64,000 bases of DNA from a virus: the IMG/VR virus record IMGVR_UViG_3300037808_001133, positions 4,601 to 68,600 of that record; one strand, 5' to 3'. Position 1 is the first letter of the stretch; every line of letters starts with the position of its first letter. The translations under genes were made by a program, and so were the position numbers. This document shows, piece after piece, positions 1-64,000 of the stretch. Below the pieces are notes generated by a model. It saw only the letters and a list, made by a program, of their open reading frames with translations. It ran no database searches and was not told the origin of the DNA.

Positions 1-22
1 CAAGCCCTCGCGCTGGTACGTC

Positions 23-316
23 GTGCTCAAGGTTGACCACGTCTACGCGCTGGTTTGGTGGGAGGGCGGCGAGCCTCACGCAGTCCCGGTCTCCGAAATG
101 AAGCGCAGGAAGATCAAGCTCGACAGCTTCGACTTCCCTATGTCGCAACTGCTCCACCGTTGGGGAATCACCGCTCGGCAGCTTGACGAGTTCTTGGAGT
201 CGGGCATGTATCGTCACGAGCCCGACGTCTCGCACGTCCGCAGTACCAGGAAGCCAACGAACGGCAGGACGACTCACCACCTCAAACACCGACACAAGAA
301 CTTCAAGCGGACTTGA
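23..316 (+). CDS. hypothetical protein, possibly 5'-truncated by the window edge
   Basis: ORF with genome-like codon usage; the frame is open back to the window start. Confidence 0.5.
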   Translation: MLKVDHVYALVWWEGGEPHAVPVSEMKRRKIKLDSFDFPMSQLLHRWGITARQLDEFLESGMYRHEPDVSHVRSTRKPTNGRTTHHLKHRHKNFKRT

Positions 317-358
317 CGTAGGCGGTTGCCATGATAGCTCCAGCCAGAGGAGGCCCTC

Positions 359-514
359 ATGAACACGCCGGACAAGCTGAAGCCGCCGCCGCTGTCGTTC
401 CCATGCAAGGTGAAGGAAGAGACAGAGAAGGCTGGGCTGGTCGCGCCGCGAGAGCTTCCCTTGTCCTTGCCTGTGCCTCGGTCCGAACGTGCGGTTGACT
501 GGCGGTCGCTATGA
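359..514 (+). CDS. small hypothetical protein (51 aa)
   Basis: Strong SD GAGGAGG before ATG; ATGA overlap with the next ORF; below the ORF-track cutoff. Confidence 0.55.
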   Translation: MNTPDKLKPPPLSFPCKVKEETEKAGLVAPRELPLSLPVPRSERAVDWRSL

Positions 515-714
515 TCGTCCCAATGAGGGGTGAAGCTTCGTTCCGACGCGGCGCGGTGTTCGTGGTCGAGCGCCTCTACTGGCGCGGCCGCCCGCTCCCG
601 GTTGGCGTCCTCAAGCTGCGGTGGCTGTTACCAGCTTCACGCGTCGGCTACGACTACCCGGGTCGCCAGCTGCCAGACGTGCTCGATCGTCCAGGCGAGC
701 GACGCGTCGCGTGA
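511..714 (+). CDS. hypothetical protein
   Basis: Translational coupling on both sides (ATGA, GTGA). Confidence 0.5.
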   Translation: MIVPMRGEASFRRGAVFVVERLYWRGRPLPVGVLKLRWLLPASRVGYDYPGRQLPDVLDRPGERRVA

Positions 715-863
715 AGCCAAAGCTCAAGCTCGTGCGCAGGACCAGCGAGGTCAGGGAGAACAGAACCGTCTGGATCGAGTTGGTCAAGAGCGGCAAGACT
801 TACTTCGAACGCGTCATGAGGCAAGACGGGTCGGAGGTCTCGTGGCGCAAGACCTCCAAGTGA
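711..863 (+). CDS. small basic hypothetical protein
   Basis: GTGA-coupled start within ORF 621..863. Confidence 0.5.
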   Translation: MKPKLKLVRRTSEVRENRTVWIELVKSGKTYFERVMRQDGSEVSWRKTSK

Positions 864-874
864 CACCGGGTGAC

Positions 875-1207
875 ATGGCGGCTACCGCTCTCTCGGTCCT
901 CGTGATTGCCTTCTCCTGTCGGGTAGCTTCGCGGCTTCACGCGAAGGCCGCGGAGCAACGTCACGTCGACAAGGCGGTGGCGTCGGCGAGGGCGAACAAC
1001 ACGATCACGCTCACGTGCGGTAGCGAGATCCGCGTGGTCGCAAAGAAGATCCCGTCAGGGTTCCCAGCTGCTTGCGACGTTTGCCAGTCGTGCGCCGAGG
1101 TCGAGGTCAACGAGACGACAATGCTCTACCTCTGCCCCGGCTGCTTCGTCCAGGTCGCAGCCCGGTTCGTACGCCGAGCCTACAGAGCGAAGCGCTCACG
1201 CGTGTAG
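875..1207 (+). CDS. hypothetical protein with N-terminal hydrophobic segment and C-terminal zinc ribbon
   Basis: MAATALSVLVIAFS; CDVCQSC...CPGC. Confidence 0.55.
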   Translation: MAATALSVLVIAFSCRVASRLHAKAAEQRHVDKAVASARANNTITLTCGSEIRVVAKKIPSGFPAACDVCQSCAEVEVNETTMLYLCPGCFVQVAARFVRRAYRAKRSRV

Positions 1208-1468
1208 CGCGTCGTCCTCCGGGACTAGCGCCTCGTCACTCGGCGGCGGCGGTGAAGCTGGCGCGCACTCAAGGTCTTCCTCGGTGTAAGCCTGCTGTGC
1301 CATGCGGGTGCGCTTCGCGATCTTGAAGAACGCGGAGTCGGTGTCGGTGACAGGCTTCTCGACGTTGCCTCGCAGCTGCCGCAGCGTTGCCCTGACTTTC
1401 TCGCGAACAGATTCCAGCGCCGGGTCAAACGTCCTGGTCGGTCTCGGCTTCGGCTTTGGTGCGAGCAT
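1196..1468 (-). CDS. hypothetical protein
   Basis: SD GAGG upstream; last gene of a 3-gene minus-strand unit. Confidence 0.55.
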   Translation of the reverse strand: MLAPKPKPRPTRTFDPALESVREKVRATLRQLRGNVEKPVTDTDSAFFKIAKRTRMAQQAYTEEDLECAPASPPPPSDEALVPEDDALHA

Positions 1469-4064: not shown

Positions 4065-5810
4065 ATGCCGAAGGACGTAACGGCAACCCTGATTCAAAAC
4101 GGGGTTGACCCAGAGCAGGCCGAACTGATCGCTGAGGCCATAGTGCTTTCGCGTCAGAAGCGCGGAGGGGTCCTGTTCGAAGACGCGGCGCTCAGGACCG
4201 TGCGCCGCTCCTTCTTCGCGGGGCGTCGTGGTGACGACCAGTACCGCGAGTTCCAAAGCCTTGTCACTTCGGAACTCAAGTCGCTCACGCCTGGCGAGCT
4301 TGCCTTCGGCGACATACCAGACGCGGCACGTGAACAGTATTCGGCGTTCTGCTGGAATATGTACAAGGGCCGACAGGAGCGATACCTCGACCGGCACGAG
4401 GACGAGGACCCAGCCGAGTTCCTCAACCGCCCGCAAAAGCGAACGCTCAACGTCACCAAAATGGTGATCAACATTCTCTCGCAGCTGTACCACTCGTCCC
4501 CGATCCGCGACCACAAAGAGGAGGAGGTGGACCCCGGTGACGCCGAGACCGTTAAGGACAACGCGGCAAAGAACCACCTCGACGACCGGCTTGACGAAAT
4601 CTGGTCTGGCGAATTGTTCAACCGGTCCATGCTTGAGATCGACCGGCTGTGCCGACTGCTCGGGACCGTCGCGGTGCGGCCTATGTACGACACCGAGCAG
4701 CCCGGGTCGATCCGGCTCTGGCTATTCATGAGCCACCAACTGCGAGTGATCCCAGACCCGGTCGCGCCTTGGAAGCCAGCGGTTGTGATTGAGCGGGCTC
4801 ACCCGTTCGGTCGCCAGAAGTCGGTGACGATTTGGACGAAGGACTTCTTCGTTGACCTTCGCCGCGACAACCAGGTGACGGTGGAGCCGCACGGGCTTGG
4901 CAGGATTCCTCACGTGTTCTGCCGCGACGAGCTTTCTTACACCTCGTTCTTCGTCGAGGGGCGCGGCCGCGTTCTCTGCAACCCCAACGCAATCCTGAAC
5001 AACGACCTCTCCGACTTGGAAGAGGTCAAGCAAATGCAAGGGTTCTCCCTGCTTGAGCTAACGAACCCGGTCGAGGACACGCAGCGAATCGGTCCACGCG
5101 AGGCGGTCACGTTCCGACCGACCGACAACACGACACCGTTCGGTGCAAAGTTCGTTGCGCCCAACGCGCCGCTCGCGGAGCTCCGCGCCGACTGCTCAGA
5201 ACAGATCGACCAAATCCTTGAGGTCAACGGCGTCCCGGCCGCAGCTGTCGGCGCGGACATTAACCGGCGCTCGCTGTCGGGCGCGGCTATCCGTGCGGGT
5301 ATGCAGCCGATCATTGCGGACAACAAGAAGCGCGAGTCTCTCTTCAAGCCGCTTGAGCACGACCTTGCCGACTCAATGCTGCGTATGGTCCGTCGTCACG
5401 AGCCGACCTTTGCCTACGACCCAGACACGCAGCGCCCCGAGTTCACGATCTTCTACCAGACCCTAGAGTTCCCAGCCGACACCCGCGACAAGGTCGTGAA
5501 GGACGACTTCGACATTGCCCAGGGGATCAACACGCCAGCCGGTATCCTGCGACGCGACGAGCCCGAGAAGTTCCCCACGCACGAGGAGGCCGTTCTTCAG
5601 TGGCAGAAGAACCTCGCCGAGCTTCGGACGGCTGGCTTCAGTCCTGGCGACGACGAGCAGGACCCGAACCTCCGCGCAAGCTTCGGTGGCTTCCAACCGA
5701 CGGTTGAAGGTCGCGAACCGCAGGAGGAGTACACGTCCAGGGAACTCATTGAGGACCTCGACGTCTTCTCAAACAAGGAGACGGCCCGGGTTCAGGCGAG
5801 CGGACTGTAG
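4065..5810 (+). CDS. portal protein (SPP1 gp6-like)
   Basis: LNVTKMVIN, HGLGRIPHV and LSGAAIR motifs; size and position. Confidence 0.85.
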   Translation: MPKDVTATLIQNGVDPEQAELIAEAIVLSRQKRGGVLFEDAALRTVRRSFFAGRRGDDQYREFQSLVTSELKSLTPGELAFGDIPDAAREQYSAFCWNMYKGRQERYLDRHEDEDPAEFLNRPQKRTLNVTKMVINILSQLYHSSPIRDHKEEEVDPGDAETVKDNAAKNHLDDRLDEIWSGELFNRSMLEIDRLCRLLGTVAVRPMYDTEQPGSIRLWLFMSHQLRVIPDPVAPWKPAVVIERAHPFGRQKSVTIWTKDFFVDLRRDNQVTVEPHGLGRIPHVFCRDELSYTSFFVEGRGRVLCNPNAILNNDLSDLEEVKQMQGFSLLELTNPVEDTQRIGPREAVTFRPTDNTTPFGAKFVAPNAPLAELRADCSEQIDQILEVNGVPAAAVGADINRRSLSGAAIRAGMQPIIADNKKRESLFKPLEHDLADSMLRMVRRHEPTFAYDPDTQRPEFTIFYQTLEFPADTRDKVVKDDFDIAQGINTPAGILRRDEPEKFPTHEEAVLQWQKNLAELRTAGFSPGDDEQDPNLRASFGGFQPTVEGREPQEEYTSRELIEDLDVFSNKETARVQASGL

Positions 5811-5813: not shown

Positions 5814-7439
5814 GTGGCTACCGACCCCGTCAGCTACATGGACGCGGCAGACGACTTCCTCAGCAAAATGGAAGCGTCGAAGCTCGTGGCGAAGGCCGAA
5901 CTTGAGACGGTCCGAAAGGGTCTCGTTCGCGACATTAAACGCGAGGCGAAGGACACAGTGAAGTCGCTTCAGACAACGCGTATCGGTGCGGCAAAGGTCT
6001 TGATTCCGAACGCTTCGAACCTCAAGAAGATTGGGCTCTCGTCGGAGAGGGTCCGATCGAAAATGCAATCCTTCCGACTCAACTACCTCAACCGAGACCA
6101 GGTGACTGCGCTGACCGACGCGGGCACTATGCCCGAGGACACGTCGAAGTTCATTCGCCACTCGCGCCGGCTGGCACGGCACGCTCGCGAGTTCCTCACC
6201 AAGATCAAAGAGGAGTCCCCCGAGCTACAGGAAGAAATCGACGCGACCCTTCTTCAAATGGAGGACAACGATATGGACCTCCTGAAGCTGGAGGTCAAGT
6301 CCATGACGCGCATGAAGGAGACCATGCTTCGCGCAGTCAACGGCCAGAAGGAGCGCGGGCAAGTGCTCAAGGAGATTGAGGACTGGGACTTGAACAAGCA
6401 GCTGTTCAACCTCTCGATCCTCGAGCACCCAGACGCCGTCGTCAGGAACCTCTTCGCGAACGCGTCGACCCGGCAGGGCTCAGCGACCGCTACCAAGACC
6501 AGCGAGATCCCGAAGCGGTCGCACGTCTTTGTCGGGCTCCCGCCGCAGGCCGCGGCGAAGCTCAAGCCGAACAGCAGGACCGCCGACTTCTCCTGGCGAC
6601 TGTTCGATCAGAAGACGCTGAACGAGAAGTTCAAGAACCTCCCAAGCAAGCAGGGAAGCCCTTCGTCGTGGCGTGGGCTCGGGCTGGACTACAACACGAA
6701 GGAGTTCTACTTGCCGGTGCCTCCGAGCATGGTCACAGGGCTCACGCCCCTCGTGACGGCGCGTCGGGCACAAACGCTTGGCGCTGGCGCAGCGGCCAGA
6801 GCAGCCGTTATGCCGCCAGACCGAATCAAGGGCGACGACCAGCTGAACCCGGTAAGCGGCGCGGCTGGGGACTCGGCTGGCGTATGGCTTGCCCGAGAGC
6901 TTCCAGAGCAGAAGGGTTTTCTCGCGAAGGCAAACGACAAAGAGATTGAGTCGATCCTCGACTACAAGGCGGGCGACGCCCTTGAGATCAACGACCTCCT
7001 CCGTGCCGACCGTGCCGACCTGCTCGGCAAGCGGAAGCAGGGAATGGTCGAGTCGCTCGACGGACTCCTCGACAAGACGGCAACGTCGAAGGACCTGGTT
7101 GTCTACCGGCAGAGCACTCACCCGGCGTTCAAGAAGCTCAAGGCCGACGACACGTTCAACGAGAAGGGCTATAGCAGTACCAGCCTCATTCGGGACCACA
7201 AGAAGTTCGGCGAGGCGGCAGAGGAAATCTTTGACGCGAAGGCCGTCCAGCTGGTGATCAATGTGCCGAAGGGTTCGAAGGGTGCTTACCTTGACTTCGT
7301 CGAGGAAGCGTCCAACCGCGAGGACGCTGAGTTCCTTCTTCCGCGTGGCGTGAAATACACAGTCACGAAGGTCGAGCAGCGAAACGACCGCAAGCAGGTG
7401 TTCGTTGACATTGAGCCCCTCGACACTTCTGAAAGGTAG
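5814..7439 (+). CDS. minor head (MuF-position) protein with C-terminal VIP2/exoenzyme-type ADP-ribosyltransferase
   Basis: Directly after portal; Y...INDLLR, VVYR, GYSSTS and DAEFLLPRG (R-S-E clade). Confidence 0.8.
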   Translation: MATDPVSYMDAADDFLSKMEASKLVAKAELETVRKGLVRDIKREAKDTVKSLQTTRIGAAKVLIPNASNLKKIGLSSERVRSKMQSFRLNYLNRDQVTALTDAGTMPEDTSKFIRHSRRLARHAREFLTKIKEESPELQEEIDATLLQMEDNDMDLLKLEVKSMTRMKETMLRAVNGQKERGQVLKEIEDWDLNKQLFNLSILEHPDAVVRNLFANASTRQGSATATKTSEIPKRSHVFVGLPPQAAAKLKPNSRTADFSWRLFDQKTLNEKFKNLPSKQGSPSSWRGLGLDYNTKEFYLPVPPSMVTGLTPLVTARRAQTLGAGAAARAAVMPPDRIKGDDQLNPVSGAAGDSAGVWLARELPEQKGFLAKANDKEIESILDYKAGDALEINDLLRADRADLLGKRKQGMVESLDGLLDKTATSKDLVVYRQSTHPAFKKLKADDTFNEKGYSSTSLIRDHKKFGEAAEEIFDAKAVQLVINVPKGSKGAYLDFVEEASNREDAEFLLPRGVKYTVTKVEQRNDRKQVFVDIEPLDTSER

Positions 7440-8446: not shown

Positions 8447-9214
8447 ATGGCTAATTCAACCCCGTTCGATACCAAAGGCTTTGGTGCTGGCGACACGTTC
8501 AACAGTGCCCCGCTCGCGTCCGGGTCGAGCACCCCGACCGTGCGGAGCATTGACGTCAAAGGCGGCACGAAACAGGTCTTCGACATTGCAGCCCGCGACG
8601 CGATACCAGGCGCGGCACTTGCCCGCGACGACGCAGACCAAATGCGGCAGGAGGGAATGCTCTGCTTTGTCCAAGCCGACCAGACCACGTATCGCCTTGA
8701 AGGTGGGATCGCAAACGGCAACTGGGTCGCGTTCGGCGCGGGCGGCGGCGGGTCGGGCACGACGCTCGACATTGACGACCGCGTGAACCAGTCCGGTGGA
8801 GCTCTAGCCATCGGCGAGATCCTCGCGCCGCACCCGACGATCCCCAGGGCATACGTCAAGGCAGACATCTCCGACCCCGCCCTGGGCGCGTCTCGCCCCA
8901 TCGCTGTCTCAACCGCTGCGCCAGTAGCGACTGACCCCGCACCCTCGCGGATCGCTGGCGAGGTGTCCGTGCTCCTCGTGCCCGGCCTCCTCGGGATCGG
9001 CGTGCCGGTCGCGCTCACTGACGAGGTGATCGTCTCGACGACGGCCGGCCGTGGCACTCTGTCGAAGAACGGACCCGGCGAGCTCGGCCAGCCGACGGCC
9101 GGCCAGGCACTCAACAAGGTCGGCACCATCGTCAGCCTTCTCACATACGACGGAGCTGGCGACGACCTCGTGCTGGTCCAGCTCGACATGAGCCCGCGAA
9201 GGATTCAGAGCTAA
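8447..9214 (+). CDS. two-domain fibre/cement-like virion protein
   Basis: KGG...ARDAIP...EGMLCFV...Y.L.GG..N.NW fibre-anchor module, Gly linker, cement-like C-terminal domain. Confidence 0.65.
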   Translation: MANSTPFDTKGFGAGDTFNSAPLASGSSTPTVRSIDVKGGTKQVFDIAARDAIPGAALARDDADQMRQEGMLCFVQADQTTYRLEGGIANGNWVAFGAGGGGSGTTLDIDDRVNQSGGALAIGEILAPHPTIPRAYVKADISDPALGASRPIAVSTAAPVATDPAPSRIAGEVSVLLVPGLLGIGVPVALTDEVIVSTTAGRGTLSKNGPGELGQPTAGQALNKVGTIVSLLTYDGAGDDLVLVQLDMSPRRIQS

Positions 9215-9387
9215 TGGCCACCACTACATTCACGCTTTCTAACGGCGGCAAGATCCAGGCCCAAGAGCCCGGCACGGTCTGGCAAGGTCTCGCCCTTGTC
9301 GAGACCTCAAGCGTAGAGGTCGGCGACTCTATCAGCGTCGGCTGCGGCTTCGCTGTCATGGACGTCGTCAGCAAAGTAACGGAATAG
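9214..9387 (+). CDS. small hypothetical protein (57 aa)
   Basis: TAATG coupling; MATTTFTLSNGG...; below the ORF-track cutoff. Confidence 0.6.
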   Translation: MATTTFTLSNGGKIQAQEPGTVWQGLALVETSSVEVGDSISVGCGFAVMDVVSKVTE

Positions 9388-9396
9388 GAGAGCCGC

Positions 9397-11148
9397 ATGC
9401 CCGGTCCCAATTTACTCGTCGCCGATCAAGGCCCGCTCGGCGCAGGCGTAGCCTCTGTCCATGAGTTGCAAGGCGGGCGGTTCGCTCGGCAAATCGGGAA
9501 CTCAGACGCAGACATGCGTGCTGTCGCTGCCGTGACTGCCGGTGCGGCGAACGCGTTCATGTGGAACACAGTCACCTGGTTTCTAGGCAAACAGTATTGG
9601 CTAGGCGGGGCCTCGGTGGGGCCGCGCATGTGGCTCAAGGTTCATAATCCGGCAACCGACACCTGGGATACCGTCTTGGAGAAAATCTCCAACTGGGTGA
9701 TTGGTGGACTGATTGTCGTTCAGACTTCCTCTGGACCAGCGCTCGTGATCGTTGCCGGTGACTCTGCCACCATGGGGTTCGTTCGCACGTTCGACGGGGT
9801 GACATTCACGGCGACCGTCTACGGCGGCAACAAGACAAGCTCAACCAGCCGCCCTGGGAACATTATCGCGCACGGCGGGCTCGTGTTTGTTCATAACCCA
9901 GGCTCGCCAACTACAGCGGGCAACCGCCAGACCTTCGATCCCGTATCGCTCTCGATTGGGCAGTTCGCTGTCTCAGGAACCGCTGGCGGTTTCGTGAACA
10001 TGACCGGCTCGTTCTTCAAGTTCGACGGTCGCTTTTGGCATATCTGCGGGTCGGGCTCTTCGCCGGGCAGCGCCGCGAGCCCTGCCGTTCTCACAGAGTT
10101 CGCATTCGGATCGTGGTCTTATCGCGGCTTCGGGTCTGGCTACGGCGGCGTTCAAATGTATCTCGGGGACGACACCTCGGGAGCACTGGCAAACATGAAG
10201 TGCGCCGCCGTCGTCGTGGACGACGACACCGTGCTCGTGTTCGGGACCGGGCACGCTGGCGGTGGCGGGCTTCCCGTGTTCTACGCCTATGAGTTGACTC
10301 TAAGCGCGGGCTCTGGCAGTCAGCTTGTTGCGGCAGACGTGACCAGCACCTACGACCCCGGCGGGCTTGGAGGCGACACCACTAACTATTTGATAAACAA
10401 TATCGGCAGAGGCCCAGACGGGTATTGGTATCTCGCGTTCGCGAATGACGACACGCTGACCGGCCTCGGCCTCGTGCGCGTGGTCAAAGGTTCGGCGTGG
10501 CAAGACGCGGGATCAATGGGAGCGAGCACCGCATACGCGATCTCACTCGCGACGCTTGACGGAGGGGAACGCCGCGACTCACGCGGAACGCTTCCGCTCG
10601 TGAAGCCAGCACCAGCGGGCTCGCCGTCGAGTTCGGCTGGGCCAACTGGCCTTCTGCAAAACTTCCGCATGGACGGCGACCCGCTCATCGCCTTGATAGG
10701 CGCAACGGCGGCAGGTCCGTTCGTGGACGGGGAGGCAATTTCTTGGACTGGTGGAAGCGGAATCATCCTTGCCTTCAGCGCCACCGAGGTCCAAATACAC
10801 ACGGTTGTTGGAGTGGTTCCGGACGGGCTTCTGGTCACCGGAGCAGGCGGCGCCAACGCGACGTGCTCGACGAGCTCGGGAAACGGGCAGGCACACACGG
10901 CTCGGCTGATCTACTTCCGCGACGCAGCCAACACCGGCCTCGGAGCTCCCAGCTTGATCGGCACACTTGTCGCCGGCTCTGGCGTGAATTGCGTGGTGAG
11001 CAAGGGCACCGGCCCAGGCGGAAGCGACGAGGTCATCACGGACGCGGATGGAAGCGGAACCATCAAGACCTTCGAGTGGGATTTCCTGGCAGATTCTATC
11101 TTTGCCTTTGTCGCGGAGAACGTGAAGCTGCAAGCCTCGCGAGTCTAA
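9397..11148 (+). CDS. large beta-propeller-like virion protein
   Basis: 583 aa, Gly/Ser/aromatic-rich, SD AGGAG. Confidence 0.65.
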   Translation: MPGPNLLVADQGPLGAGVASVHELQGGRFARQIGNSDADMRAVAAVTAGAANAFMWNTVTWFLGKQYWLGGASVGPRMWLKVHNPATDTWDTVLEKISNWVIGGLIVVQTSSGPALVIVAGDSATMGFVRTFDGVTFTATVYGGNKTSSTSRPGNIIAHGGLVFVHNPGSPTTAGNRQTFDPVSLSIGQFAVSGTAGGFVNMTGSFFKFDGRFWHICGSGSSPGSAASPAVLTEFAFGSWSYRGFGSGYGGVQMYLGDDTSGALANMKCAAVVVDDDTVLVFGTGHAGGGGLPVFYAYELTLSAGSGSQLVAADVTSTYDPGGLGGDTTNYLINNIGRGPDGYWYLAFANDDTLTGLGLVRVVKGSAWQDAGSMGASTAYAISLATLDGGERRDSRGTLPLVKPAPAGSPSSSAGPTGLLQNFRMDGDPLIALIGATAAGPFVDGEAISWTGGSGIILAFSATEVQIHTVVGVVPDGLLVTGAGGANATCSTSSGNGQAHTARLIYFRDAANTGLGAPSLIGTLVAGSGVNCVVSKGTGPGGSDEVITDADGSGTIKTFEWDFLADSIFAFVAENVKLQASRV

Positions 11149-11164
11149 GAAGGGCGGCTGCTCG

Positions 11165-13903
11165 GTGTCTAAATCACGCTCTGTTTTTGTCGTGGCTCGG
11201 CCGATGGTCAACGGCTGGGGACTGTATGAGGAATACAGCAGGGGCACCCTTTACCTCGGCAGGATCAACGGAGACGCCGCGCTCGCGAACGAGAACACGG
11301 CGGTAAACGTGGAGTGGCGAGCATTCGACCGCTCTGCGTTTGCGTCTGTAGACGTGCCGCCACAAGCGGCGACGCCGGCACAGACTGGAAGCCATAGAAT
11401 CTTTTGGTTCCAGCAGAACGCGATCCAGGAAAGCGTCTCCCTGCCGGTCCCATTCTCTGTCGTTCACACCGTGGTCGGCATGCAGAACGTGCTCGACTTC
11501 GGTCTGCACACCGGCCTCTACAACGTCTTGGGATTCGACGGGCTGCGCTACCTTTGCGGCCTCTACCCAGGCGCGCTAGCTGGCGAGACTGGCTGGGTGA
11601 AGTGGAACCCGCGCACGAACGTGTGGACCAGCGGGATCGTCGCGGGCACGACGCGGCCGAGCGGTAACCGCATGGGTCCGTGTGTCGCGTTCGACGCGCA
11701 ACTGTGCCACGCGAACAACGGCGTGCTCACGATGTTCGACCCTGCCGGCGAGACGATAAACCAGATCCCCTACGCGGACGGCTCAAGCATCGACCGAGTC
11801 GTGGTGTCTTCGGGAGGGCTGTTCATAGTTTCGGCTGGAGCTGGACAGATCAAGGTGCACCAACTTGCGTTTGGGCTGCACGAGATTAGCAACCCAGGCG
11901 CGCACGCGATCAACATCGCAGGCGGCGGCGAGTTCGCGCTGATGCGCTTCGGGTCGGTGGACGACCATAATCTGTTTTACATCATGTTCTATACGACGAC
12001 CGGCGGCACGGGATCGAAGTGCTACAAGGTCGAGACGTCAGGCCCATCGCCTGTCGTCACCGAGACCACGGCCATGGTTCCGACGGCCCTTGAGTTCAGC
12101 CAGCTCGCCGTGCCACCGTTCACGGTCTTCTTTGAAAACAGGCAGTGGCCTGGTGGAACGGCGCACCCCGACGACTGCTATGAGACCTGCTTCGACAACG
12201 TCGATTTTGTGCCTTACGTTCCGAGCGTTGCGGCGCCCTGGGGCCACTGCAAACTGATCCGAACAACCCCACCTGGGACGATCATTTACAACCCGCTGAA
12301 GTTCAACGGCGAGGGCGTCGCCATGAACCAGGAGGCGCTGGGTTCGCCGCCTGGAGGATTCACTGGCGCCGACTTCCTCACCCGCTCGCTGTCCGTCTCT
12401 TCGAGCTGGCTCGGCGGCGACGATACGCGGAACAACGAAGGTCGCCCGAAGGCGTGGCCTATAAGCGCGGTGGAATACTCGGACGCGACGACGCCCAGGG
12501 GTTTGCTCGTCACGTTCTGGCTTGAAGGTTCTGGCGCTGGCGGCGTGTCCGACGTGCTGATTCTCATCGGCAGGAACCGCATGCGCCCTAACCAGGTCGC
12601 GACGCTCGTGGCTGGGAATCCCGTGATCGACTACGGCGGCACGGCGCAATTCAACAATGCGCTGAACCGCCTGGAGAAGTGCAACGAGTCGTGGACGGGC
12701 GGCCCTGGGAACCAGAACCGGGTCTATGACTACGCGCCGCAAACGGTCGGCAAAGTGATCGAGCCCGGCACGACCTTGTCGGAGTTTCCTGCTGGCACCA
12801 AGGGCGGCGTGAATGTCTTCGCCTCGCCGCTCGCCGCCCCGAGACCTGCCCGCATTTACATGATCGAGACGAGCGCGGTTTTCATTGCCGCCGAGACGTT
12901 CCAGCAGAACGGAGGGCTGAACAACGGCGAGCTATTCGACCTGGGCAACGGACTCAGCTCTATCGTTCACCAGGCGATCATTGACCTCGGCGCGATACCG
13001 GACGGCGAGACGATCACCATCCAGCCGCTCATGTTCGGGACGGGCATGGTTGGCAATCCGCTCGCAGACGACTCGACATATTCCGGCTGGACGTTGGAGC
13101 ACCTAGTCGGACCAGGCGCGGTGCCGTTCCAGATCGACGCGGAAGGCCCGACCGTTGACACGTTCACGGAGTCGGTCGGAGGATCGGGCGACTCGGAAGG
13201 CCCGACCGTGGACACGCTAATGCAGTCCGCTTCAGCGTCTTCGGACTCGGAAGGCCCGACCGTGGACACACTCACCCAGGGCGGCGGCGGCGACTCCGAG
13301 GGGCCGGTGGTGGACTTGCTGCCGACGACGCTGCTGACTCCCCAGGACATCCTGCGCGGCCGTGGCTCCGAGCTCGCAGAGGAAGGCGGCGGCGTGATCG
13401 CGTGGCTGGCCGACGGCGTCGAGGGATCGGCGCGCAACGTCCTCAACGTGACGAACAACGGCAAGCCAGGCGAAGCGGCCGCGCTCTCGCTCGGCGCGAT
13501 CCCAGCCTTGAGCCTCACGCTCGACGGGATCATAGAGCTCGGTCGCGTTCTCGTGGACTGCGTCGCGAACCCAGCCAACACGACGTTCCCCGTCGTTGAC
13601 GTGACGGCGCTCGGGCTGTCGGTTGTCGGCGTTGCCGAGGTCAAGGTTCACTTGGTCGCGGCTGTTGGCGTGGTCGGTATGCCGACGATCGGCCTCGGGG
13701 TCGGCGGTGCTTACGACGATCAAGTTCCAGCAACGCCCGTGTCACTGGGTGCCGTTGGCTTTCACGAAGAACTCCCCGTGTTGCAGCCGCGCCCCGTACT
13801 CCGTCCAGGCGACGTCCTCGAGGTCGAGTTGGACGTGGTCGCCGCCGGGACGACGACGTATCAACTGGAGGTCGTCGTGTATGGCTTCCACCGAATCCCA
13901 TAG
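11165..13903 (+). CDS. large multidomain virion/appendage protein
   Basis: 912 aa, beta-rich, internal DSEGPTVD repeats, decoration-like C-terminal domain. Confidence 0.65.
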   Translation: MSKSRSVFVVARPMVNGWGLYEEYSRGTLYLGRINGDAALANENTAVNVEWRAFDRSAFASVDVPPQAATPAQTGSHRIFWFQQNAIQESVSLPVPFSVVHTVVGMQNVLDFGLHTGLYNVLGFDGLRYLCGLYPGALAGETGWVKWNPRTNVWTSGIVAGTTRPSGNRMGPCVAFDAQLCHANNGVLTMFDPAGETINQIPYADGSSIDRVVVSSGGLFIVSAGAGQIKVHQLAFGLHEISNPGAHAINIAGGGEFALMRFGSVDDHNLFYIMFYTTTGGTGSKCYKVETSGPSPVVTETTAMVPTALEFSQLAVPPFTVFFENRQWPGGTAHPDDCYETCFDNVDFVPYVPSVAAPWGHCKLIRTTPPGTIIYNPLKFNGEGVAMNQEALGSPPGGFTGADFLTRSLSVSSSWLGGDDTRNNEGRPKAWPISAVEYSDATTPRGLLVTFWLEGSGAGGVSDVLILIGRNRMRPNQVATLVAGNPVIDYGGTAQFNNALNRLEKCNESWTGGPGNQNRVYDYAPQTVGKVIEPGTTLSEFPAGTKGGVNVFASPLAAPRPARIYMIETSAVFIAAETFQQNGGLNNGELFDLGNGLSSIVHQAIIDLGAIPDGETITIQPLMFGTGMVGNPLADDSTYSGWTLEHLVGPGAVPFQIDAEGPTVDTFTESVGGSGDSEGPTVDTLMQSASASSDSEGPTVDTLTQGGGGDSEGPVVDLLPTTLLTPQDILRGRGSELAEEGGGVIAWLADGVEGSARNVLNVTNNGKPGEAAALSLGAIPALSLTLDGIIELGRVLVDCVANPANTTFPVVDVTALGLSVVGVAEVKVHLVAAVGVVGMPTIGLGVGGAYDDQVPATPVSLGAVGFHEELPVLQPRPVLRPGDVLEVELDVVAAGTTTYQLEVVVYGFHRIP
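13136..13315 (+). repeat. four intragenic repeats encoding D(A/S)EGP(T/V)VD
   Basis: GACTCGGAAGGCCCGACCGTGGACAC-like units at 13136, 13190, 13244 and 13292. Confidence 0.9.
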
Positions 13904-22110: not shown

Positions 22111-22307
22111 GGACGGGGGTTCTTTGGTGGGCACTCAAAGCCTGCGAGCGACTCCCATTCCTCGACCTTGAGAAGTTCTTCTCCGCACCTCGCGAGGAAC
22201 AAATCCTGCTCCTGATCTATGCGCAGGAGCGGGACCAGGAAGAACTTGAGGACGCGATCTCGCGCTCGGTGGCGAACATGATCCCGGTCCAAGGCGGAGA
22301 CACCTAA
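22107..22307 (+). CDS. gpT-like frameshift extension of the tail chaperone
   Basis: VRTGVLWWALKACERLPF...; stop overlaps the tape-measure ATG. Confidence 0.8.
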   Translation, partial: VRTGVLWWALKACERLPFLDLEKFFSAPREEQILLLIYAQERDQEELEDAISRSVANMIPVQGGDT

Positions 22308-43443: not shown

Positions 43444-43446
43444 GGC

Positions 43447-44136: not shown

Positions 44137-44151
44137 GATACTCGGTCGGGC

Positions 44152-46886: not shown

Positions 46887-46909
46887 TTGTTCTCCTTCGT
46901 GTTTGGTGG

Positions 46910-47176
46910 TTAGGACATTGGGCGCCCTTGTCGCGGCGCCGCCTCTCGCTTTGGAATTGGTCCGTGTTTCTTCTTAATGCTCTTGAGCTTGACGGTGCAT
47001 GCCTCTTGGACGAACGAACGAATGCTTGCCTGCGGTTCGGGTCCGCGCTGCAAGTAGACGACCGCGTCTTTGATTCGCTCAATGAACTCCTCGTCTAGAT
47101 CGACCGGGAGCTTCTTCTTCTTCTTTGCCGCTTCGGCCTTCTTCTTCTTCGGTGTCTTCTTTGTCCGCGTTGCCAT
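46910..47176 (-). CDS. small DNA-binding protein (ParB_C / ribbon-helix-helix-like)
   Basis: AAGGAGG SD; RIKDAV..L..GP...SI..FV.EA...GRP. Confidence 0.6.
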   Translation of the reverse strand: MATRTKKTPKKKKAEAAKKKKKLPVDLDEEFIERIKDAVVYLQRGPEPQASIRSFVQEACTVKLKSIKKKHGPIPKREAAPRQGRPMS

Positions 47177-47231
47177 GTTTCCCTCCTTGGGTTCGCCGCC
47201 CAGCCTAAGCCGGGCGGCGGTGTTGTTCAGA

Positions 47232-52986: not shown

Positions 52987-53208
52987 CTACCGCTCGTTGA
53001 TACCCGGGTTTCTCTCGGCGTCGGTCAGGCACCCGTCGCCGCAGTCTTCGCCGGTCGAGATCCAGCCCGCGCCCTCGCGAGTGATCAGTCCGTCGCGCTC
53101 CAGGGCGACGAGTGCCTCCTGAAAGTCCAACGCGTCAAAGATTTGAGGCACGGAGCTTTCCTCGACGCGCTTGAGCAGGGCGTCCTTGATTGCTTCCAGT
53201 CCGCTCAT
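52987..53208 (-). CDS. small protein, winged-helix-like
   Basis: ATGA-coupled to queE; LVALERDGLI. Confidence 0.5.
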   Translation of the reverse strand: MSGLEAIKDALLKRVEESSVPQIFDALDFQEALVALERDGLITREGAGWISTGEDCGDGCLTDAERNPGINER

Positions 53209-53867
53209 TCGACGTCCCACGCCTTGTGCTGCTGGACCGAGAGTCTCCAAGCGGGGTTCTCCTTGCACCAATTGATCGCGCACCAAAGGTTCGAAGAGGA
53301 GTCGGAGTCCTGCGGTGCCCAAGCAGGCGAAGCGAACCGGTGAAGCTCGGCGGCATGCCGAGATTCAATCCCGCGATCGTCTGGCGGGTTCCCAGGCGAC
53401 ACGACGCAGCGGACCTCGTCTGCTCGGCGAAGCCGAGTCGGCCCCTTCGGCGAACACGAAATCCAATCAGCCGCGTCAAGCACCTCGTCGCCAGACGTTC
53501 CGTTCGTCTCGACCGCCGTGTACCAGCCGTCACCACGAAGCGCGTAGAGCAGTTCGCGGTCAAGCTGAAGCGTCGGTTCCCCGCCGCTAATCACGACAGC
53601 CCGATTCGCGTGAGGGCGGCTCCCCCAAAGCACGGCCAAGGTTCGAAGGATCTCGGGAATGCCGAGGCGCTCCCCGCCCTTGAAGTCGGTGTCGCACATA
53701 AACCCGACGTCAATCTCAAGGCCCTCCATTTTGCGGTCGAGTTCCTCGGCGTCGACGCACTGAAGGTTGCAGCCCGCGAACCGCAAGAACAGCGTCACGG
53801 TTCCGGCGCGGTGCCCTTCGCCCTGAAGCGTCGGTCCGAAAATCTTCTTCACCGAATAGGTCTTCAC
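53205..53867 (-). CDS. queE: 7-carboxy-7-deazaguanine synthase (radical SAM)
   Basis: TLQGEG, FLRFAGCNL, CDTDF, SGGEP.LQ, ETNG, SPK and WRLS.Q.HK; GTGA-coupled start at 53867. Confidence 0.93.
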   Translation of the reverse strand: MKTYSVKKIFGPTLQGEGHRAGTVTLFLRFAGCNLQCVDAEELDRKMEGLEIDVGFMCDTDFKGGERLGIPEILRTLAVLWGSRPHANRAVVISGGEPTLQLDRELLYALRGDGWYTAVETNGTSGDEVLDAADWISCSPKGPTRLRRADEVRCVVSPGNPPDDRGIESRHAAELHRFASPAWAPQDSDSSSNLWCAINWCKENPAWRLSVQQHKAWDVE

Positions 53868-54589
53868 GACTGTCTCGCATTCATTGTGAGTCCCAGTGCC
53901 TCGGCAAGCTTCGGGTAGATACTCTCCTCGGCGAGCTTTGCGGCGAACTCGCATGCGTCCCCCGAAGGGTGGTAGATCGGCGAGTAGTTGATCTCAAGGC
54001 CAAGGCCCAGGCTGTATCGCTCCTCTAGCTCGTCGGACTTTGACCACAGGTAGGGAGGCGGCCGCCGGCCAGGCCAGCTATGCCCTTCGAACTTTGCTCG
54101 AGCAGGCCACGTCGAGGTTGTCGGGTCAACGATCGTTCCCGACCCGTCGCTGTGCCGCAAAGCGAGCCAGCAATGAAGCTCGGGCATGAGCTCGCGAACC
54201 GTTCCGGTCTCCTCGCAGTAGGCTTCCCGCTTAACGCGTTTCTCACCCTGCCACTCAAAGCCGAACAACGGTGCGTCGGCGTCCTTGTGAGGGTCGGTCT
54301 CTGGCGTATGCCTCGGCCAGTAACACGTCCCGGCTTGAAGCATGAACTGCAACCCGTGTCGCTTTGCTCCAAGCAGCTGGAGCGCGGCTGCGTGAAACAA
54401 ACAGTCGAAGCCTGGCTTGACTGACTCGCTCCAGACGCTCGCGTAGAGAATGAGCGCGTCCTTCACGAGCTTGCGCTGCTTCGTTCGCGAGAGCACTTGG
54501 TCGTTCAACTCGTTCGCGGCAGCTGCGGGGCGTTGCCCGATCACCGCTCGCCTCCGAACCCTCGCGTTGAATTGCTTCTTGCCGCTCAT
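53864..54589 (-). CDS. putative transglutaminase/papain-fold enzyme
   Basis: DCLFHA...AG...HCWL...IVDPT gives a candidate Cys-His-Asp triad; coupled to queD and queE. Confidence 0.55.
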   Translation of the reverse strand: MSGKKQFNARVRRRAVIGQRPAAAANELNDQVLSRTKQRKLVKDALILYASVWSESVKPGFDCLFHAAALQLLGAKRHGLQFMLQAGTCYWPRHTPETDPHKDADAPLFGFEWQGEKRVKREAYCEETGTVRELMPELHCWLALRHSDGSGTIVDPTTSTWPARAKFEGHSWPGRRPPPYLWSKSDELEERYSLGLGLEINYSPIYHPSGDACEFAAKLAEESIYPKLAEALGLTMNARQS

Positions 54590-55053
54590 AGCGAAGCCTC
54601 GGCTTTGCAGTTCGGCGTCTCCCAGACAAGAACCTTCACGACGTCAACGCCCGCGCCAGCGAGTAGGTCTGGGCAAATCACGTCGAGAAGATAGCTCGCC
54701 ATGTTCTCGGCGGTCGGGTTGCACGGCATGAGGTAGAGCTTTTGAAGAGTCCCAACCTCATTCCGACCAGGGCGCGGCACGACCTCAAGGCGACCGACTG
54801 CTTTCGCGAGCGGGTCAACGTCGTTCATGATCATTCCGTGGTCCCACTTCTCGTCCAGCCAGCCGCCGATCTTTTCCTTGAGCACGCTGAAGTCGATCGT
54901 GCGACCGACCTCGTCTAGCTCGTCCGCTTGTGCAGTCACCTCGACAACGTAGCGGTGACCGTGGAGGTGAGCGCACTTGCTCTCGTGCTTGTAGACCCGG
55001 TGGCCCGCGTCGAACTCCAGCTTCCTCGTGCAAGTAACTTTCGTGTCCTTCAT
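54586..55053 (-). CDS. queD: 6-carboxytetrahydropterin synthase
   Basis: FDAGHR...C..LHGHRY, DF..LK, DH, PTAEN and WET. Confidence 0.95.
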   Translation of the reverse strand: MKDTKVTCTRKLEFDAGHRVYKHESKCAHLHGHRYVVEVTAQADELDEVGRTIDFSVLKEKIGGWLDEKWDHGMIMNDVDPLAKAVGRLEVVPRPGRNEVGTLQKLYLMPCNPTAENMASYLLDVICPDLLAGAGVDVVKVLVWETPNCKAEASL

Positions 55054-56188: not shown

Positions 56189-56859
56189 TGCGTATACCTC
56201 GGCGCGATCAGAACAAGGTTGTTCGGTGTCGCGTTCTCGTAGCAGTGCTCCCAGCCGTCCTCGTTAATGTCCTGGCCAGGCATGGGAATGAACGCGTAGC
56301 GATTGTCGGCCAAGCACCACGCACGCAGACGCGTCAGCAGGGTCCAGTCGGCAATCGTGCGGTAGTCCCTGTGCCGAACGTCGAGTCGGTCGGCGACTTC
56401 GCCTTCGCCGAGCCTGACGGCTTGCACCGAGAAGCGCCACTGACCGTCAGGTGTCGAGGCTCGGAGGATGTACTTGTCCAGAAGTTCGCTGGTCGCAGCC
56501 GTGGGAGGCGCTCCAGGGAGGCCGTTATCGAGGACAGGGTTCCCCGCCCTAGTCTCAAGCATTTCCTTTAGCAGCCCGATAGGCGGCACCCTGGGCGGGT
56601 GTCGCTGGACCTCGTCCTGAAGCGCTTCAAATAACGGTCGCTGGTTGTCCGGCGTGTTGTTCCTGGCGAACTCCCAACGCGTGATCCCCGTAGCCGGACG
56701 CCACTGGCGAACCGGCACCGTGACCTTCGGCTTGTGCCAGTCGAACAGGCGCGTCGCTTGAGGTTTGAGCATGACCCGCATTGACCCGTCGGGCTGGTGC
56801 CGACAAATCTCCGTGCCGTCTCTGGCGAGCTTGGTGAAGTGTTTCGCTGCGCCATTCAT
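56185..56859 (-). CDS. hypothetical protein
   Basis: Coupled on both sides; RL.V.H......W..L..L....P motif common in phage proteins. Confidence 0.6.
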   Translation of the reverse strand: MNGAAKHFTKLARDGTEICRHQPDGSMRVMLKPQATRLFDWHKPKVTVPVRQWRPATGITRWEFARNNTPDNQRPLFEALQDEVQRHPPRVPPIGLLKEMLETRAGNPVLDNGLPGAPPTAATSELLDKYILRASTPDGQWRFSVQAVRLGEGEVADRLDVRHRDYRTIADWTLLTRLRAWCLADNRYAFIPMPGQDINEDGWEHCYENATPNNLVLIAPRYTQ

Positions 56860-57596
56860 AGTGCGACTCGCTCCATGATGTACGACACCGTGCCACCGGA
56901 CGAAATGATCCCTCGGTTGTCGTCCAGGACCTTGTCGAGCGGTAGGCCCAGGCTCTCAACACCGACGCTGCCGTTCGTGCAGACGTAGAGGTATGGTCGC
57001 TCGTTCTCGTTCTCGCTCAGCGGCTCCCCGTCGAAGTAGACAGCTGCGTAGGCGACACCGCTCCAGTAGGCGTTCGCGAAACCCCGGTCTGACTTGTAGA
57101 CCCGGAGCGACACCTCGCCCAGATGGTTGTCACCACCAATGTCCTTCAGCGTCACGGTCGAGAAAGGAAGCGACATAATCGAGGCGAGTTCGTCGCGAGC
57201 TAGGTCGGGCAGCACGTCAATCGGAATGCTCAGCGACTCGACGTAGTGGTTCACGCGTTCGCGCAGCGATACCCGCTGGCTCTCGTCAGCCGACAAGGCG
57301 CAGAGGCCGAGGTAGTCTTCGCGCTCGGGGTCGTCAGCGGTGAAGACACCCGGGCCAGCGTAGTGAGCCAGCGCGACCTTCTCGCTGACGCTTCCTCGCT
57401 CAAGGTACTGGAGGCTCGCGGGGTCTGCGCCGCCGCTCATGAGTCGCGAGGCAAGCATGGCCTCGTCGCCCTCAAGACCAAGCGCGACAGACGCGGCTCG
57501 CGCCTGGTCGTTGGTGAGGAGTTTCTTCTGACGGGCGTCTTCGATCATTGCGCGGAGCTCGGCGAGAGCTTCGGGCTTGGTGGCGGTTTCAGTCAT
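56856..57596 (-). CDS. hypothetical protein
   Basis: AAGGAGG SD, ATG at 57596. Confidence 0.65.
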   Translation of the reverse strand: MTETATKPEALAELRAMIEDARQKKLLTNDQARAASVALGLEGDEAMLASRLMSGGADPASLQYLERGSVSEKVALAHYAGPGVFTADDPEREDYLGLCALSADESQRVSLRERVNHYVESLSIPIDVLPDLARDELASIMSLPFSTVTLKDIGGDNHLGEVSLRVYKSDRGFANAYWSGVAYAAVYFDGEPLSENENERPYLYVCTNGSVGVESLGLPLDKVLDDNRGIISSGGTVSYIMERVAL

Positions 57597-57883
57597 ACGG
57601 TTCGTCCCTCCTTGGGACAGCAGTTGCAGTGGTGTTTGATCCAGTTGGGCCCGGGACGAACGTAGTCCCAGGTGAGTCCGACGGCGTCGCGTTCGTGAAG
57701 GCACTCGGCGACAGCTGGCGGCAAGAGAGTATCCGGGTCCTGACCGACAGGAACCCAGAAGTGAAAGTGAGCCCCATGGGGCCCCGCCAACGTAGCGTCG
57801 GCGAGGACCCCTGCGAACACGTCAGGGAACGGCGTGTCGCGGTAGTCACGAAAGGCGTGGCGAAGGTCGGCGTAAGAGGTCAC
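57593..57883 (-). CDS. hypothetical protein
   Basis: GGAGG SD; GTGA-coupled. Confidence 0.55.
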   Translation of the reverse strand: MTSYADLRHAFRDYRDTPFPDVFAGVLADATLAGPHGAHFHFWVPVGQDPDTLLPPAVAECLHERDAVGLTWDYVRPGPNWIKHHCNCCPKEGRTV

Positions 57884-62074: not shown

Positions 62075-62143
62075 TTGAATCTCCAGTAAAAGTAAAAGTG
62101 AAAGTGACCAGTCTCTTCATAGCCGGGTAGGTCAGGTCCCGAC

Positions 62144-62165
62144 GACGTTCCCCCGTGGGAACGTT
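62144..62165. other. intergenic stem-loop
   Basis: ACGTTCCC-CCGT-GGGAACGT. Confidence 0.45.
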
Positions 62166-62169
62166 TCGA

Positions 62170-62781
62170 CTAGCGCCGACCGTGGAAGGCGCAGAGCGAA
62201 GGGTGGTGATCGCACGAGCAGTCAGCGAGCGTTGCGTGCGACCGGTAGGTCACCGAGGTCACAGGCACGGGCTGCGCAACCGGCACGTCAGGCAACGCGG
62301 TCTGAACGTAGAGCGCGAGGTCCGAGGCAATGACGTCAGGTTCCCATTGCTCCCAAACGTCCTCGCCGTCTTGGTGCTCCTGCTCGTCAACAGCTTCAAG
62401 CAGCAACTCGACGACGCGCTTCACAGCTGCACCCTTCGGACTCGACGCGAGTGCGTGTAGCTCAAGCGAGTTCATGGTCTCTTCGAACGCCGACAAGACC
62501 GGCGCCCGCGTGAACTCTTCTGGCTCGTCGTCGTCGGGGTCGCTTGCGCCCATAACGAACGTCAGCTTCCCTCCCGTGGTCAGGAACTCCACGCCGACCT
62601 CGATAACGTAGGTCCTCCACAGCGCGGGGCCGGGCGTCAACATGAGCCACTCGTGGTCCTCGCGTGGCGCGTGGTCGGCGGCGTCACCCGGGTAGTTCGA
62701 CCCGTCGTAGTCACCCGCCCCGTAGCGGGCGTCCATGATTGCCTTGACCAGTGCTTCGCGTGTTCGCTTCGTGCCGATCAT
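62170..62781 (-). CDS. acidic hypothetical protein
   Basis: AGGAGGT SD; ATGA-coupled. Confidence 0.65.
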   Translation of the reverse strand: MIGTKRTREALVKAIMDARYGAGDYDGSNYPGDAADHAPREDHEWLMLTPGPALWRTYVIEVGVEFLTTGGKLTFVMGASDPDDDEPEEFTRAPVLSAFEETMNSLELHALASSPKGAAVKRVVELLLEAVDEQEHQDGEDVWEQWEPDVIASDLALYVQTALPDVPVAQPVPVTSVTYRSHATLADCSCDHHPSLCAFHGRR

Positions 62782-63041
62782 GCAGCACCTCCTTTGCGTT
62801 CGTTGTCAATTAGTCGGGTCGGTACTCGGTCGGGGTCGTAGCCAGCGAGGTCGATCATTCGCCAGCAGCCGGCGCACGGTCGCCACAGCAGGAGGCGAAC
62901 GCCCCCGTCGTCGAAGGTCACCTTGAGCACGTCGTCTCCGTAGCTCGTCGGTTCAAGCTTGCAGTCGTCGCGCTCCCAATCGAAGCGGGCAATGTGCATG
63001 CGCTCGCGCTCGCGCCGTGCTGCCTTGCTCGACCGACTCAT
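62778..63041 (-). CDS. hypothetical protein
   Basis: ATGA-coupled start at 63041. Confidence 0.5.
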   Translation of the reverse strand: MSRSSKAARRERERMHIARFDWERDDCKLEPTSYGDDVLKVTFDDGGVRLLLWRPCAGCWRMIDLAGYDPDRVPTRLIDNERKGGAA

Positions 63042-63280
63042 GCCGTCACGTCCGGTCTTTGAATCCTGGCCCAGAGCACATGAAAGGGAACGTCGGTGAG
63101 CGACTCGACGCAACCGTTGAACGGCTCGTTGCGGAAGTCTTCGCTCCCGTGTTCCTTCAGCGCGTGAAGCAGGACCGCCTCGGTCACGCCCGGGACAGCC
63201 AGGACCTCTCGCAGGACCTCGCAGGCAAGGTCGCTTGCGTCGTCGTTGTCGCCGATCATTTGCTTGACGAGGTCGCTCAC
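63038..63280 (-). CDS. hypothetical protein
   Basis: GGAAGGT SD; GTGA-coupled. Confidence 0.55.
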   Translation of the reverse strand: MSDLVKQMIGDNDDASDLACEVLREVLAVPGVTEAVLLHALKEHGSEDFRNEPFNGCVESLTDVPFHVLWARIQRPDVTA

Positions 63281-63918
63281 GCGACACCTTCCTTCGTGGC
63301 GAACATTACGACGACGAGTTTGGCGAGCTTGGACTTGAGTCGCGTCCTGCACTGACTCGCGTTCTCAAGGTTGGCGTGGTCCCAACGAACCCGGTCCTGC
63401 GCCAGGAAACCTTTGCCGTAGGTCACGCCGATTCGGTTGAGCTCCAAGCTCACGTCAATACCTTCGTTCGTCGCGGGGTTCGTGAACAACGACACCGAGT
63501 AACCGGTGACCCGGTTCACGCGCTCGCAGCTGGTCCGGTTCGTGTTGATTGCCTCGGGGTTCCACGTCCCGATCACTTCGCCGTTGAAGACCACGTCTCC
63601 CTCGGGGCATTGCTCAAGGTCGTTACCGTCGAGCTTCGCGAACTTGAGCTTGCTGAAGACTCGCCCTTGGTCGAGCGCCCAAGTCTCAACGCCGCGCTTC
63701 GCGCTCTTGCGCCCGTCGCTCGTGAGCGACCAGGCGTCGCATGCGCCGTGGACATAACCAGGGTCGACCTCGACGAGTCCGAGCGCGACAAGCTTGCGAA
63801 CACGCGAGCGCGTCCCGGATACCGAAAGGCTCAGCGACTCGGCAAGCTCGTAGGCGTCGCACATGCCGTTCGCGTGGATTGCCTGTAGCGTCTCGACTTG
63901 TTTCTTTGAAAGGTTCAC
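63277..63918 (-). CDS. winged-HTH domain protein
   Basis: AYELAESLSLSVSGTRSRVRKLVALGLV...WSLT..G; AAGGAG SD. Confidence 0.75.
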   Translation of the reverse strand: MNLSKKQVETLQAIHANGMCDAYELAESLSLSVSGTRSRVRKLVALGLVEVDPGYVHGACDAWSLTSDGRKSAKRGVETWALDQGRVFSKLKFAKLDGNDLEQCPEGDVVFNGEVIGTWNPEAINTNRTSCERVNRVTGYSVSLFTNPATNEGIDVSLELNRIGVTYGKGFLAQDRVRWDHANLENASQCRTRLKSKLAKLVVVMFATKEGVA

Positions 63919-64000
63919 GGGGTCAACTCCTTGTTGGTTTGAAAGGCGTGGTGGAAGAATGCCGTTGACCGACGGCGGGCGGGTGGATTCGATCCACAGC

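Follow-up and report, generated by a model that had tools for sequence, protein, structure and literature searches.

Near-absence of the asymmetric tetranucleotide GATG/CATC from a seawater phage and its close relatives, probably caused by host restriction

The window analyzed here is a stretch of 64,000 nucleotides of viral DNA, bases 4601-68600 of the 68,600-bp IMG/VR virus contig IMGVR_UViG_3300037808_001133 (estimated completeness 63%). Outside two islands in genes for fiber-like proteins, it is almost free of the tetranucleotide GATG and its complement CATC, and the same purge is found in the close relatives of the phage. The whole window contains 51 sites (23 GATG and 28 CATC), of which 47 lie inside the two islands (limits in Table 1) and 4 in the rest of the window, referred to below as the core. 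These four are CATC at 15272 and GATG at 56467, 56877, and 57122, exactly the positions named by the original prediction, which had been made by eye from the sequence. Its location and counts of the depletion were correct, and its GC estimate of about 65% was too high compared with the measured 62.2%. The 4,600 nucleotides of the contig upstream of the window contain no site at all. For the whole window, 442 sites were expected from a zero-order model and 334.5 from a maximal-order Markov model. The resulting observed/expected (O/E) ratio of 0.15 is the lowest Markov value of any tetranucleotide, the next being AATT at 0.44. Outside the islands, 4 sites stand against 276 expected by the Markov model.

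The depletion was also assessed with 300 synonymous shuffles within genes, which keep the proteins and the codon usage (a usage already bent by the avoidance). In the core genes (53,979 nucleotides) 262.9 ± 12.1 sites were expected and the lowest shuffle still had 231, compared with the 4 observed; in the island genes (7,635 nucleotides) there were 43 against 57.2 ± 5.8. Both controls had been proposed by the original prediction, and after neither did the ratio come near 1. On the coding strand of the core genes, GATG occurred 0 times against 105 expected and CATC 4 times against 158. Non-coding DNA and the genes of both strands were equally clean. Because both words are missing, from genes on either strand and from non-coding DNA as well, the target is double-stranded DNA. 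All eight 5-mer extensions (NGATG and GATGN) were depleted: each occurred 0-3 times in the core (54-119 expected) and never in C42 (88-223 expected), a related phage genome described below. Since every extension is depleted alike, the target is the tetranucleotide itself and not a set of 5-mers of the FokI, SfaNI, or BccI type. The prediction that all flanks are depleted was thus borne out, and a set of known 5-bp sites as the full explanation is ruled against.

The avoidance is visible in the choice of codons. After a codon ending in C, isoleucine was encoded by ATC in just 3 cases, by ATT in 104, and by ATA in 12, whereas the numbers elsewhere were 390, 124, and 20; the shift to ATT and ATA in this context had been foreseen. 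As had also been claimed for the codons before methionine, none of the 240 Met codons was preceded by G. The Asp codon GAT was never used before G (0 of 501). The avoidance reaches the protein level, at the cost of Met-Met and Trp-Met, the sole dipeptides that force the word. Both were absent from the window core (0 against 6.8 expected) and from C42 (0 against 8.6), compared with 60 against 39.9 expected in ordinary genes of a bacterial metagenome-assembled genome (MAG). The core has 6,423 one-step neighbors of GATG/CATC, so that 4 sites correspond to approximately 0.2% of neutral divergence. With synonymous sites saturated between genomes that are nevertheless clean, this small equivalent indicates that the purge is actively maintained and is not a frozen accident.

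A search with the major capsid protein returned 55 homologues, for some of which DNA was obtained by an alignment-based scan. C42, with 79% capsid identity, had 0 GATG/CATC sites against 603 expected by the Markov model. Equally clean were L002 and L003 (both 77% identity; 0 against 57 and 0 against 56) and L004 and L009 (both 70%; 0 against 26 and 0 against 13), and L005 (69%) had 1 against 79. The counts were 13 against 35 in L006 and 15 against 28 in L007, both with 59% identity, and were normal in L008 and L010-L012, with 57% or less. The purge is therefore complete at a capsid identity of at least 69%, partial at 59%, and absent at 57% or less. C42 is 81,370 bp long, has a GC content of 66%, and was binned into a Planctomycetota MAG (G001); its 141-bp terminal overlap shows that the genome is complete. 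By codon shuffle 486 ± 17 sites were expected in it, and its Markov O/E was 0.00. The core genes of the window and of C42 are 60-80% identical at the amino acid level, and both sets are clean. The comparison with related phages that the original prediction had proposed thus gave 0-1 sites in each close relative. The 5-mer extensions, the shuffles, the dipeptides, and the conservation within the clade agree with its claim of strong selection on the bare asymmetric tetranucleotide.

Scans of IMG/VR with the capsid protein, a capsid alignment, two island proteins, and the HNH protein of the window returned only the distant L001 and L192, both with normal GATG/CATC counts. In 79 prophage-like loci of MAGs with a capsid gene of 34-38% identity, O/E was approximately 1 or above. 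Of 80 genome loci, C42 included, 77 were labeled as Planctomycetota lineages. The capsid genes of L083-L161 belong to DUF5309 (PF17236) and were found in approximately 77 Planctomycetota MAGs (Phycisphaerae, Sedimentisphaerales, and 'Pirellulales'); these loci represent a very widespread prophage-like element in Planctomycetota. The phage group of the window, which is uncultured, tailed, about 75-81 kb in size, and from seawater, possibly infects Planctomycetota.

Other words are missing as well. GATC (342 occurrences), CATG (234), and TCGA (462) are common in the window, as the original prediction had stated, but one correction is needed, since four hexanucleotide palindromes were eliminated or nearly so: CGCGCG (0 observed against 80-86 expected), AGATCT (0 against 18-19), AGGCCT (2 against 47-52), and GGATCC (2 against 21-23), the lower expected values being from both-strand counts. 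CGCGCG is missing in spite of 761 occurrences of CGCG. C42 keeps all four of these palindromes and lacks others, namely GTAC (0 against 228), AAGCTT (0 against 33), ATCGAT (0 against 42), CTCGAG (0 against 103), and GGCGCC (0 against 83). L002 and L003 have the AAGCTT, CTCGAG, and GGCGCC purges in common with C42, and L005 has the AGGCCT purge in common with the window. The lineage habitually eliminates words of the restriction type, each phage its own set.

The islands are foreign to the surrounding genome and are best read as recently imported distal cassettes of fiber-like proteins. Both begin within a gene, directly after a conserved N-terminal part. The first site of island 1 is at codon 121 of its first gene, where the homology to L005 (59% identity, residues 6-126) ends. 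Island 2 starts at codon 135 of the fiber gene, whose match to C42 is limited to residues 5-119, and the three genes downstream of it had no match in C42. The genes of island 1 share 26-40% identity with the corresponding genes of purged relatives, compared with 60-80% for the flanking genes. They contained 4, 5, and 9 sites against 7.0, 11.8, and 18.8 expected (18 against 37.6 in sum) and are thus about half depleted, like the relatives with 59% capsid identity. Island 2, which gave a weak PHROG match to tail fibers and a match to DUF4376, was not depleted (12, 7, and 6 sites against 9.8, 3.3, and 5.8 expected). Database entries with 100% identity exist for the 912-residue island protein as well as for the capsid protein, their longest contig having 76,201 bp, so the islands are not an assembly chimera.

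Contigs identical to the window were present in several seawater metagenome runs, in which the phage is abundant. When positions 27501-47500 were overlaid with contigs of four such runs, all pieces were identical to the window and no joints were seen. Run X10, with a depth of 0-4, had one uncovered bin in island 2 and a few loose ends, and was uninformative on alternative cassettes. A phage with 47 island sites is abundant in several runs, and the islands fit an agent that is conditional and varies between strains. In the islands (8447-13903 and 35200-37583, both strands) four further palindromes were low: GTCGAC (0 against 13.6), CCGCGG (0 against 9.8), CGATCG (2 against 13.8), and TGATCA (0 against 5.6). 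More palindromes are avoided here than in the core, and the donors of the islands strongly avoid such sites as well.

Three of the four residual core sites are GATGTA/TACATC, as predicted, and all three extend to GTACATC/GATGTAC: 15269-15275, where TAC ATC encodes Tyr-Ile, and 56467-56473 and 56877-56883, with GATGTAC on the plus strand. In the core, ATC after a C was found in 3 of 3 cases in the context G-TAC-ATC, compared with 0 of 116 elsewhere, and GTACATT and GTACATA were absent from the whole window. The word thus seems to be tolerated where it overlaps GTAC, either because GATGTAC is not recognized by the agent or because a modification directed at GTAC protects it. Two of the four core sites lie in one gene on the minus strand, which is not depleted (Table 1) and has no homologue in C42; this gene is possibly a third, small import.

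The window also encodes a set of genes for 7-deazaguanine synthesis and its predicted transfer to DNA. The preQ0 synthesis set consists of FolE (Pfam, 1.7e-71, 239.8 bits), QueC (1.6e-62, 211.1 bits), and QueD (PTPS, 1.2e-30, 106.5 bits), all three over the cut-offs, together with a QueE-like protein with a sub-threshold Radical_SAM match of 22.4 bits. Two adjacent DpdA-like open reading frames (ORFs) matched PHROG 887, queuine tRNA-ribosyltransferase, with 3.6e-10 and 4.5e-15 and gave no Pfam match; the identity of one to annotated phage enzymes does not exceed 29%, and tblastn gave no match for the other. A further gene at this locus has a ParB-like PHROG match. The genes of both deazaguanine segments contained 0 GATG/CATC sites against 30.2 ± 4.2 by shuffle, which means that the predicted modification and the avoidance have coexisted for a long time and that the avoidance was not made redundant. 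On these grounds, a scenario in which the deazaguanine system relieved the phage of the need for the purge and thereby admitted the islands was rejected. C42 had no match to FolE, QueC, either DpdA-like ORF, the QueE-like protein, or QueD (tblastn, E ≤ 1e-5). In this comparison of purge with gene content, which covers two genomes, the window and C42, the latter lacks the deazaguanine genes and still has no site in 81 kb; the purge is thus independent of the deazaguanine system.

At the place of the Dpd locus, C42 carries a single gene for a fusion of a ParB domain with an N6/N4 DNA methyltransferase (L165:1702-3378, minus strand). The ParB parts are 53% identical, indicating that a DNA-modification module was swapped behind a conserved ParB-like domain. 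The ORF at 53864-54589 (minus strand), between the QueD and QueE-like genes, has a homologue of 48% identity in C42. As C42 has this homologue and no Que genes, the ORF need not be a tailoring enzyme for deazaguanine.

The depletion is specific to the tetranucleotide, extends through the clade, and does not depend on the deazaguanine genes; the agent that causes it is most likely a host restriction enzyme, and we regard restriction-site avoidance against a host enzyme reading GATG/CATC as the probable explanation of the purge. A defense of this specificity exists, since the restriction-modification (R-M) system MhoVII of Mycoplasma hominis recognizes exactly GATG/CATC. According to the available part of the report, a fused two-domain enzyme methylates GATG and CATC, and the endonuclease cuts the unmethylated word (PMC12898733). 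The same text, from 2026, presents this as the first experimental proof and mentions further predicted methyltransferases in REBASE (PMC12898733). The original prediction had left the choice between an uncharacterised host system and a phage enzyme. The evidence favors host defense, and MhoVII makes the word uncharacterised partly outdated. In the available part of the survey by Rusinov et al., it is mainly in non-temperate double-stranded DNA phages that orthodox Type II sites are described as completely eliminated (Rusinov et al. 2018, PMC6286503). Because the palindrome purges of the window and its relatives match that pattern, restriction is the natural reading of the GATG/CATC purge as well.

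Under host restriction, the phage would evade its host by site elimination, GATG/CATC being removed from both strands. The route of removal is synonymous codons (ATT or ATA after a codon ending in C, GAC ahead of a G, and codons not ending in G ahead of ATG), with Met-Met and Trp-Met, which force the word, also forbidden. The selecting agent is most likely a host endonuclease acting on double-stranded DNA, for example a Type II R-M system of MhoVII specificity. Each leftover site would lower the odds of survival on entry, and purifying selection would thereby hold the count at or near zero throughout the clade. The donors of the islands would show partial avoidance of the word or none, and the imported DNA would still await cleaning.

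Several observations weigh against host restriction. No host was identified and no R-M system of GATG/CATC specificity was found. G001, the MAG that contains C42, has normal GATG/CATC counts (2,741 against 2,603 expected in 265 kb), lacks a D12-class methyltransferase (PF02086), and shows little depletion of the palindromes that C42 avoids. Six PF01555 matches were obtained in it, including one on C42 itself, and its link to the phage is one of binning only; as a host it is unsupported by the word statistics. The GATG purge is constant across the clade whereas the palindrome purges vary between its members, which is unexpected for an ordinary mobile R-M agent. The islands have the CGCGCG and AGGCCT purges of the core (0 against approximately 4 and 0 against approximately 3.3) but not its GATG purge, so that the island donors appear to be exposed to these 6-bp cutters and to be spared by the GATG agent. 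In the available part of their report, Rusinov et al. center on palindromic sites and treat asymmetric Type II sites only in the supplement (PMC6286503).

The constancy of the purge bears on a second possible agent, a nuclease encoded by the phage without a methylase, which would read GATG/CATC and destroy the DNA of the host and of competing phages, self being marked by absence of the word. Such a nuclease would explain why the purge follows the phage phylogeny and persists where the host-type palindrome purges differ, and why the island donors have palindrome purges but no GATG purge. The only candidate seen for a phage-borne sequence-reading nuclease is the predicted HNH_3/NUMOD4/helix-turn-helix (HTH) endonuclease of the window, which is encoded at the same locus in C42 (L165:630-1133) with 67% identity; C42 has a second HNH copy (L166:10253-10801) with 35% identity. 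The domain make-up of the window protein is that of homing or packaging endonucleases, and a scan of 66 proteins from the window, its contig, and C42 revealed no other restriction-type nuclease. With an unconditional self-cutter, the 47 sites of the islands would be lethal from the start, but the phage occurs in abundance and in identical form in several runs. We therefore consider a phage nuclease unlikely, and equally doubtful the corollary that base modification by the phage itself would protect the GTAC-overlapping sites and the tolerated islands.

A host defense of another kind, such as a Type III or Type IIS-like system, a BREX (bacteriophage exclusion) or phosphorothioate-type system whose core has 4 bp, or a CRISPR-Cas system with this word as its protospacer adjacent motif (PAM), would leave the same double-strand signature in both orientations. 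If inherited vertically throughout a host clade, it would explain how this purge outlasts the palindrome purges. PAM recognition is usually loose, but the purge is exact. Selection by a Type III system would concern one orientation only, and here both are gone. The available part of the survey by Rusinov et al. describes almost no avoidance of Type I, IIG, and III sites (PMC6286503), and this group of systems is quite unlikely as the source. Far less probable is a link to the deazaguanine system, with the word as the DpdA target or incompatible with the modification. The window does encode the preQ0 proteins and two DpdA-like proteins; however, the explanation is largely refuted by the clean C42 genome without such genes, and the deazaguanine genes themselves are free of the word. 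A compositional or mutational artefact without selection on the word can practically be dismissed, because the depletion withstands the Markov correction and the codon-preserving shuffles, is missing from the islands of the same genome, from the MAG, and from relatives with a capsid identity of 57% or less, and extends to the two dipeptides.

The gene content of the window is summarized in Table 1. A megablast search with 8 kb of the window gave no match among isolated phages, and the best capsid identity among them in tblastn was 27.6%; there is thus no close isolated phage. A 581-residue protein (4065-5810) likewise had no tblastn match among isolated phages, and sequence searches of the PDB with three proteins of no assigned function gave nothing useful. 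The match of the MuF-like head protein to C42 is confined to its first 307 residues, and its C-terminal ADP-ribosyltransferase domain is therefore exchangeable. One region of C42 is absent from the contig of the window and carries genes for DUF5131, DUF1643, and RusA proteins (L165:14787-15716, 11744-12277, and 17845-18438, all on the minus strand).

Table 1. Positions of the islands and of selected genes in the window
Feature	Position	Strand	Remarks
Island 1	8809-13348	+	19 sites; distal part of gene 8447-9214, genes 9397-11148 and 11165-13903
Island 2	35273-37560	+	28 sites; distal part of fiber gene 34869-35984, genes 35984-36604, 36601-37014, and 37011-37583
Gene with two of the four core sites (56877, 57122)	56856-57704	-	2 sites against 3.1 expected, not depleted
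Predicted HNH_3 + NUMOD4 + HTH endonuclease	39331-39840	-	HNH_3 2.7e-11, NUMOD4 2.2e-07
ParB-like, two DpdA-like, QueC, and FolE genes	40245-44136	-	Free of GATG/CATC
QueE-like gene, ORF of no assigned function, QueD	53205-55053	-	
Structural genes	about 1-39,000	+	
Large terminase	just upstream of the window		Part of the plus-strand structural block
MuF-like head protein with C-terminal ADP-ribosyltransferase domain	5814-7439	+	PF03496, 3.1e-23
Major capsid protein	16466-17635	+	
Tape measure protein	22307-25882	+	Fiber-like genes also in the plus-strand block
Replication genes (DnaB, AAA_24, AAA ATPase) and 7-deazaguanine pathway	about 39,300-64,000	-	

Restriction-site avoidance is a known phenomenon, to which this purge is a striking addition; unusual are the asymmetric 4-bp target, the completeness (0 sites in 81 kb), the cost at the protein level, and the stability within the clade. 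No report of GATG/CATC avoidance in a phage was found in the literature searched. An asymmetric 4-bp word occurs approximately every 150 bp, and an enzyme reading it would be a very severe barrier. That the clade rewrote some 500 positions and bans two dipeptides suggests that some marine bacteria commonly and persistently carry a defense reading GATG/CATC. The purge can serve as a marker, readable from sequence alone, for finding this defense in host methylomes and for linking uncultured phages to hosts. The unpurged islands are time stamps of recent cassette exchange in receptor-binding genes.

Among known cases of a missing 4-bp word, the Staphylococcus Twort-like phages, for example phage K, have genomes free of GATC, the host enzyme being Sau3AI. 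There, too, the word is missing from a large virulent genome, but it is a palindrome and the enzyme is known. The Type IIS enzymes SfaNI (GCATC) and BccI (CCATC) contain the same asymmetric core as the word purged here, but their sites have 5 bp. The same is true of FokI, with the site GGATG (PMC12898733), and at least four enzymes of this type would be needed to mimic the depletion of all extensions. MhoVII reads the very word avoided here but belongs to a mollicute of low GC content that is not related to any likely host; its methyltransferase is a fusion of YhdJ-like and D12-class parts next to the endonuclease, and the D12 domain is lacking in G001, the MAG linked to C42 by binning. With the avoidance described in the available part of the survey by Rusinov et al. 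(PMC6286503), the purge shares near-complete loss on both strands, mostly by synonymous changes, and several avoided words per genome. The cases documented there are overwhelmingly palindromic with a known host, whereas here a 4-bp non-palindrome is purged throughout a clade in which the palindrome purges vary. Like known phage systems of 7-deazaguanine modification, another anti-restriction device, the window has a preQ0 pathway and DpdA-like transglycosylases. Known phage DpdAs act at short motifs such as GA, according to the available part of the source (PMC10484667). In the present phage, the predicted modification coexists with extensive site avoidance rather than replacing it.

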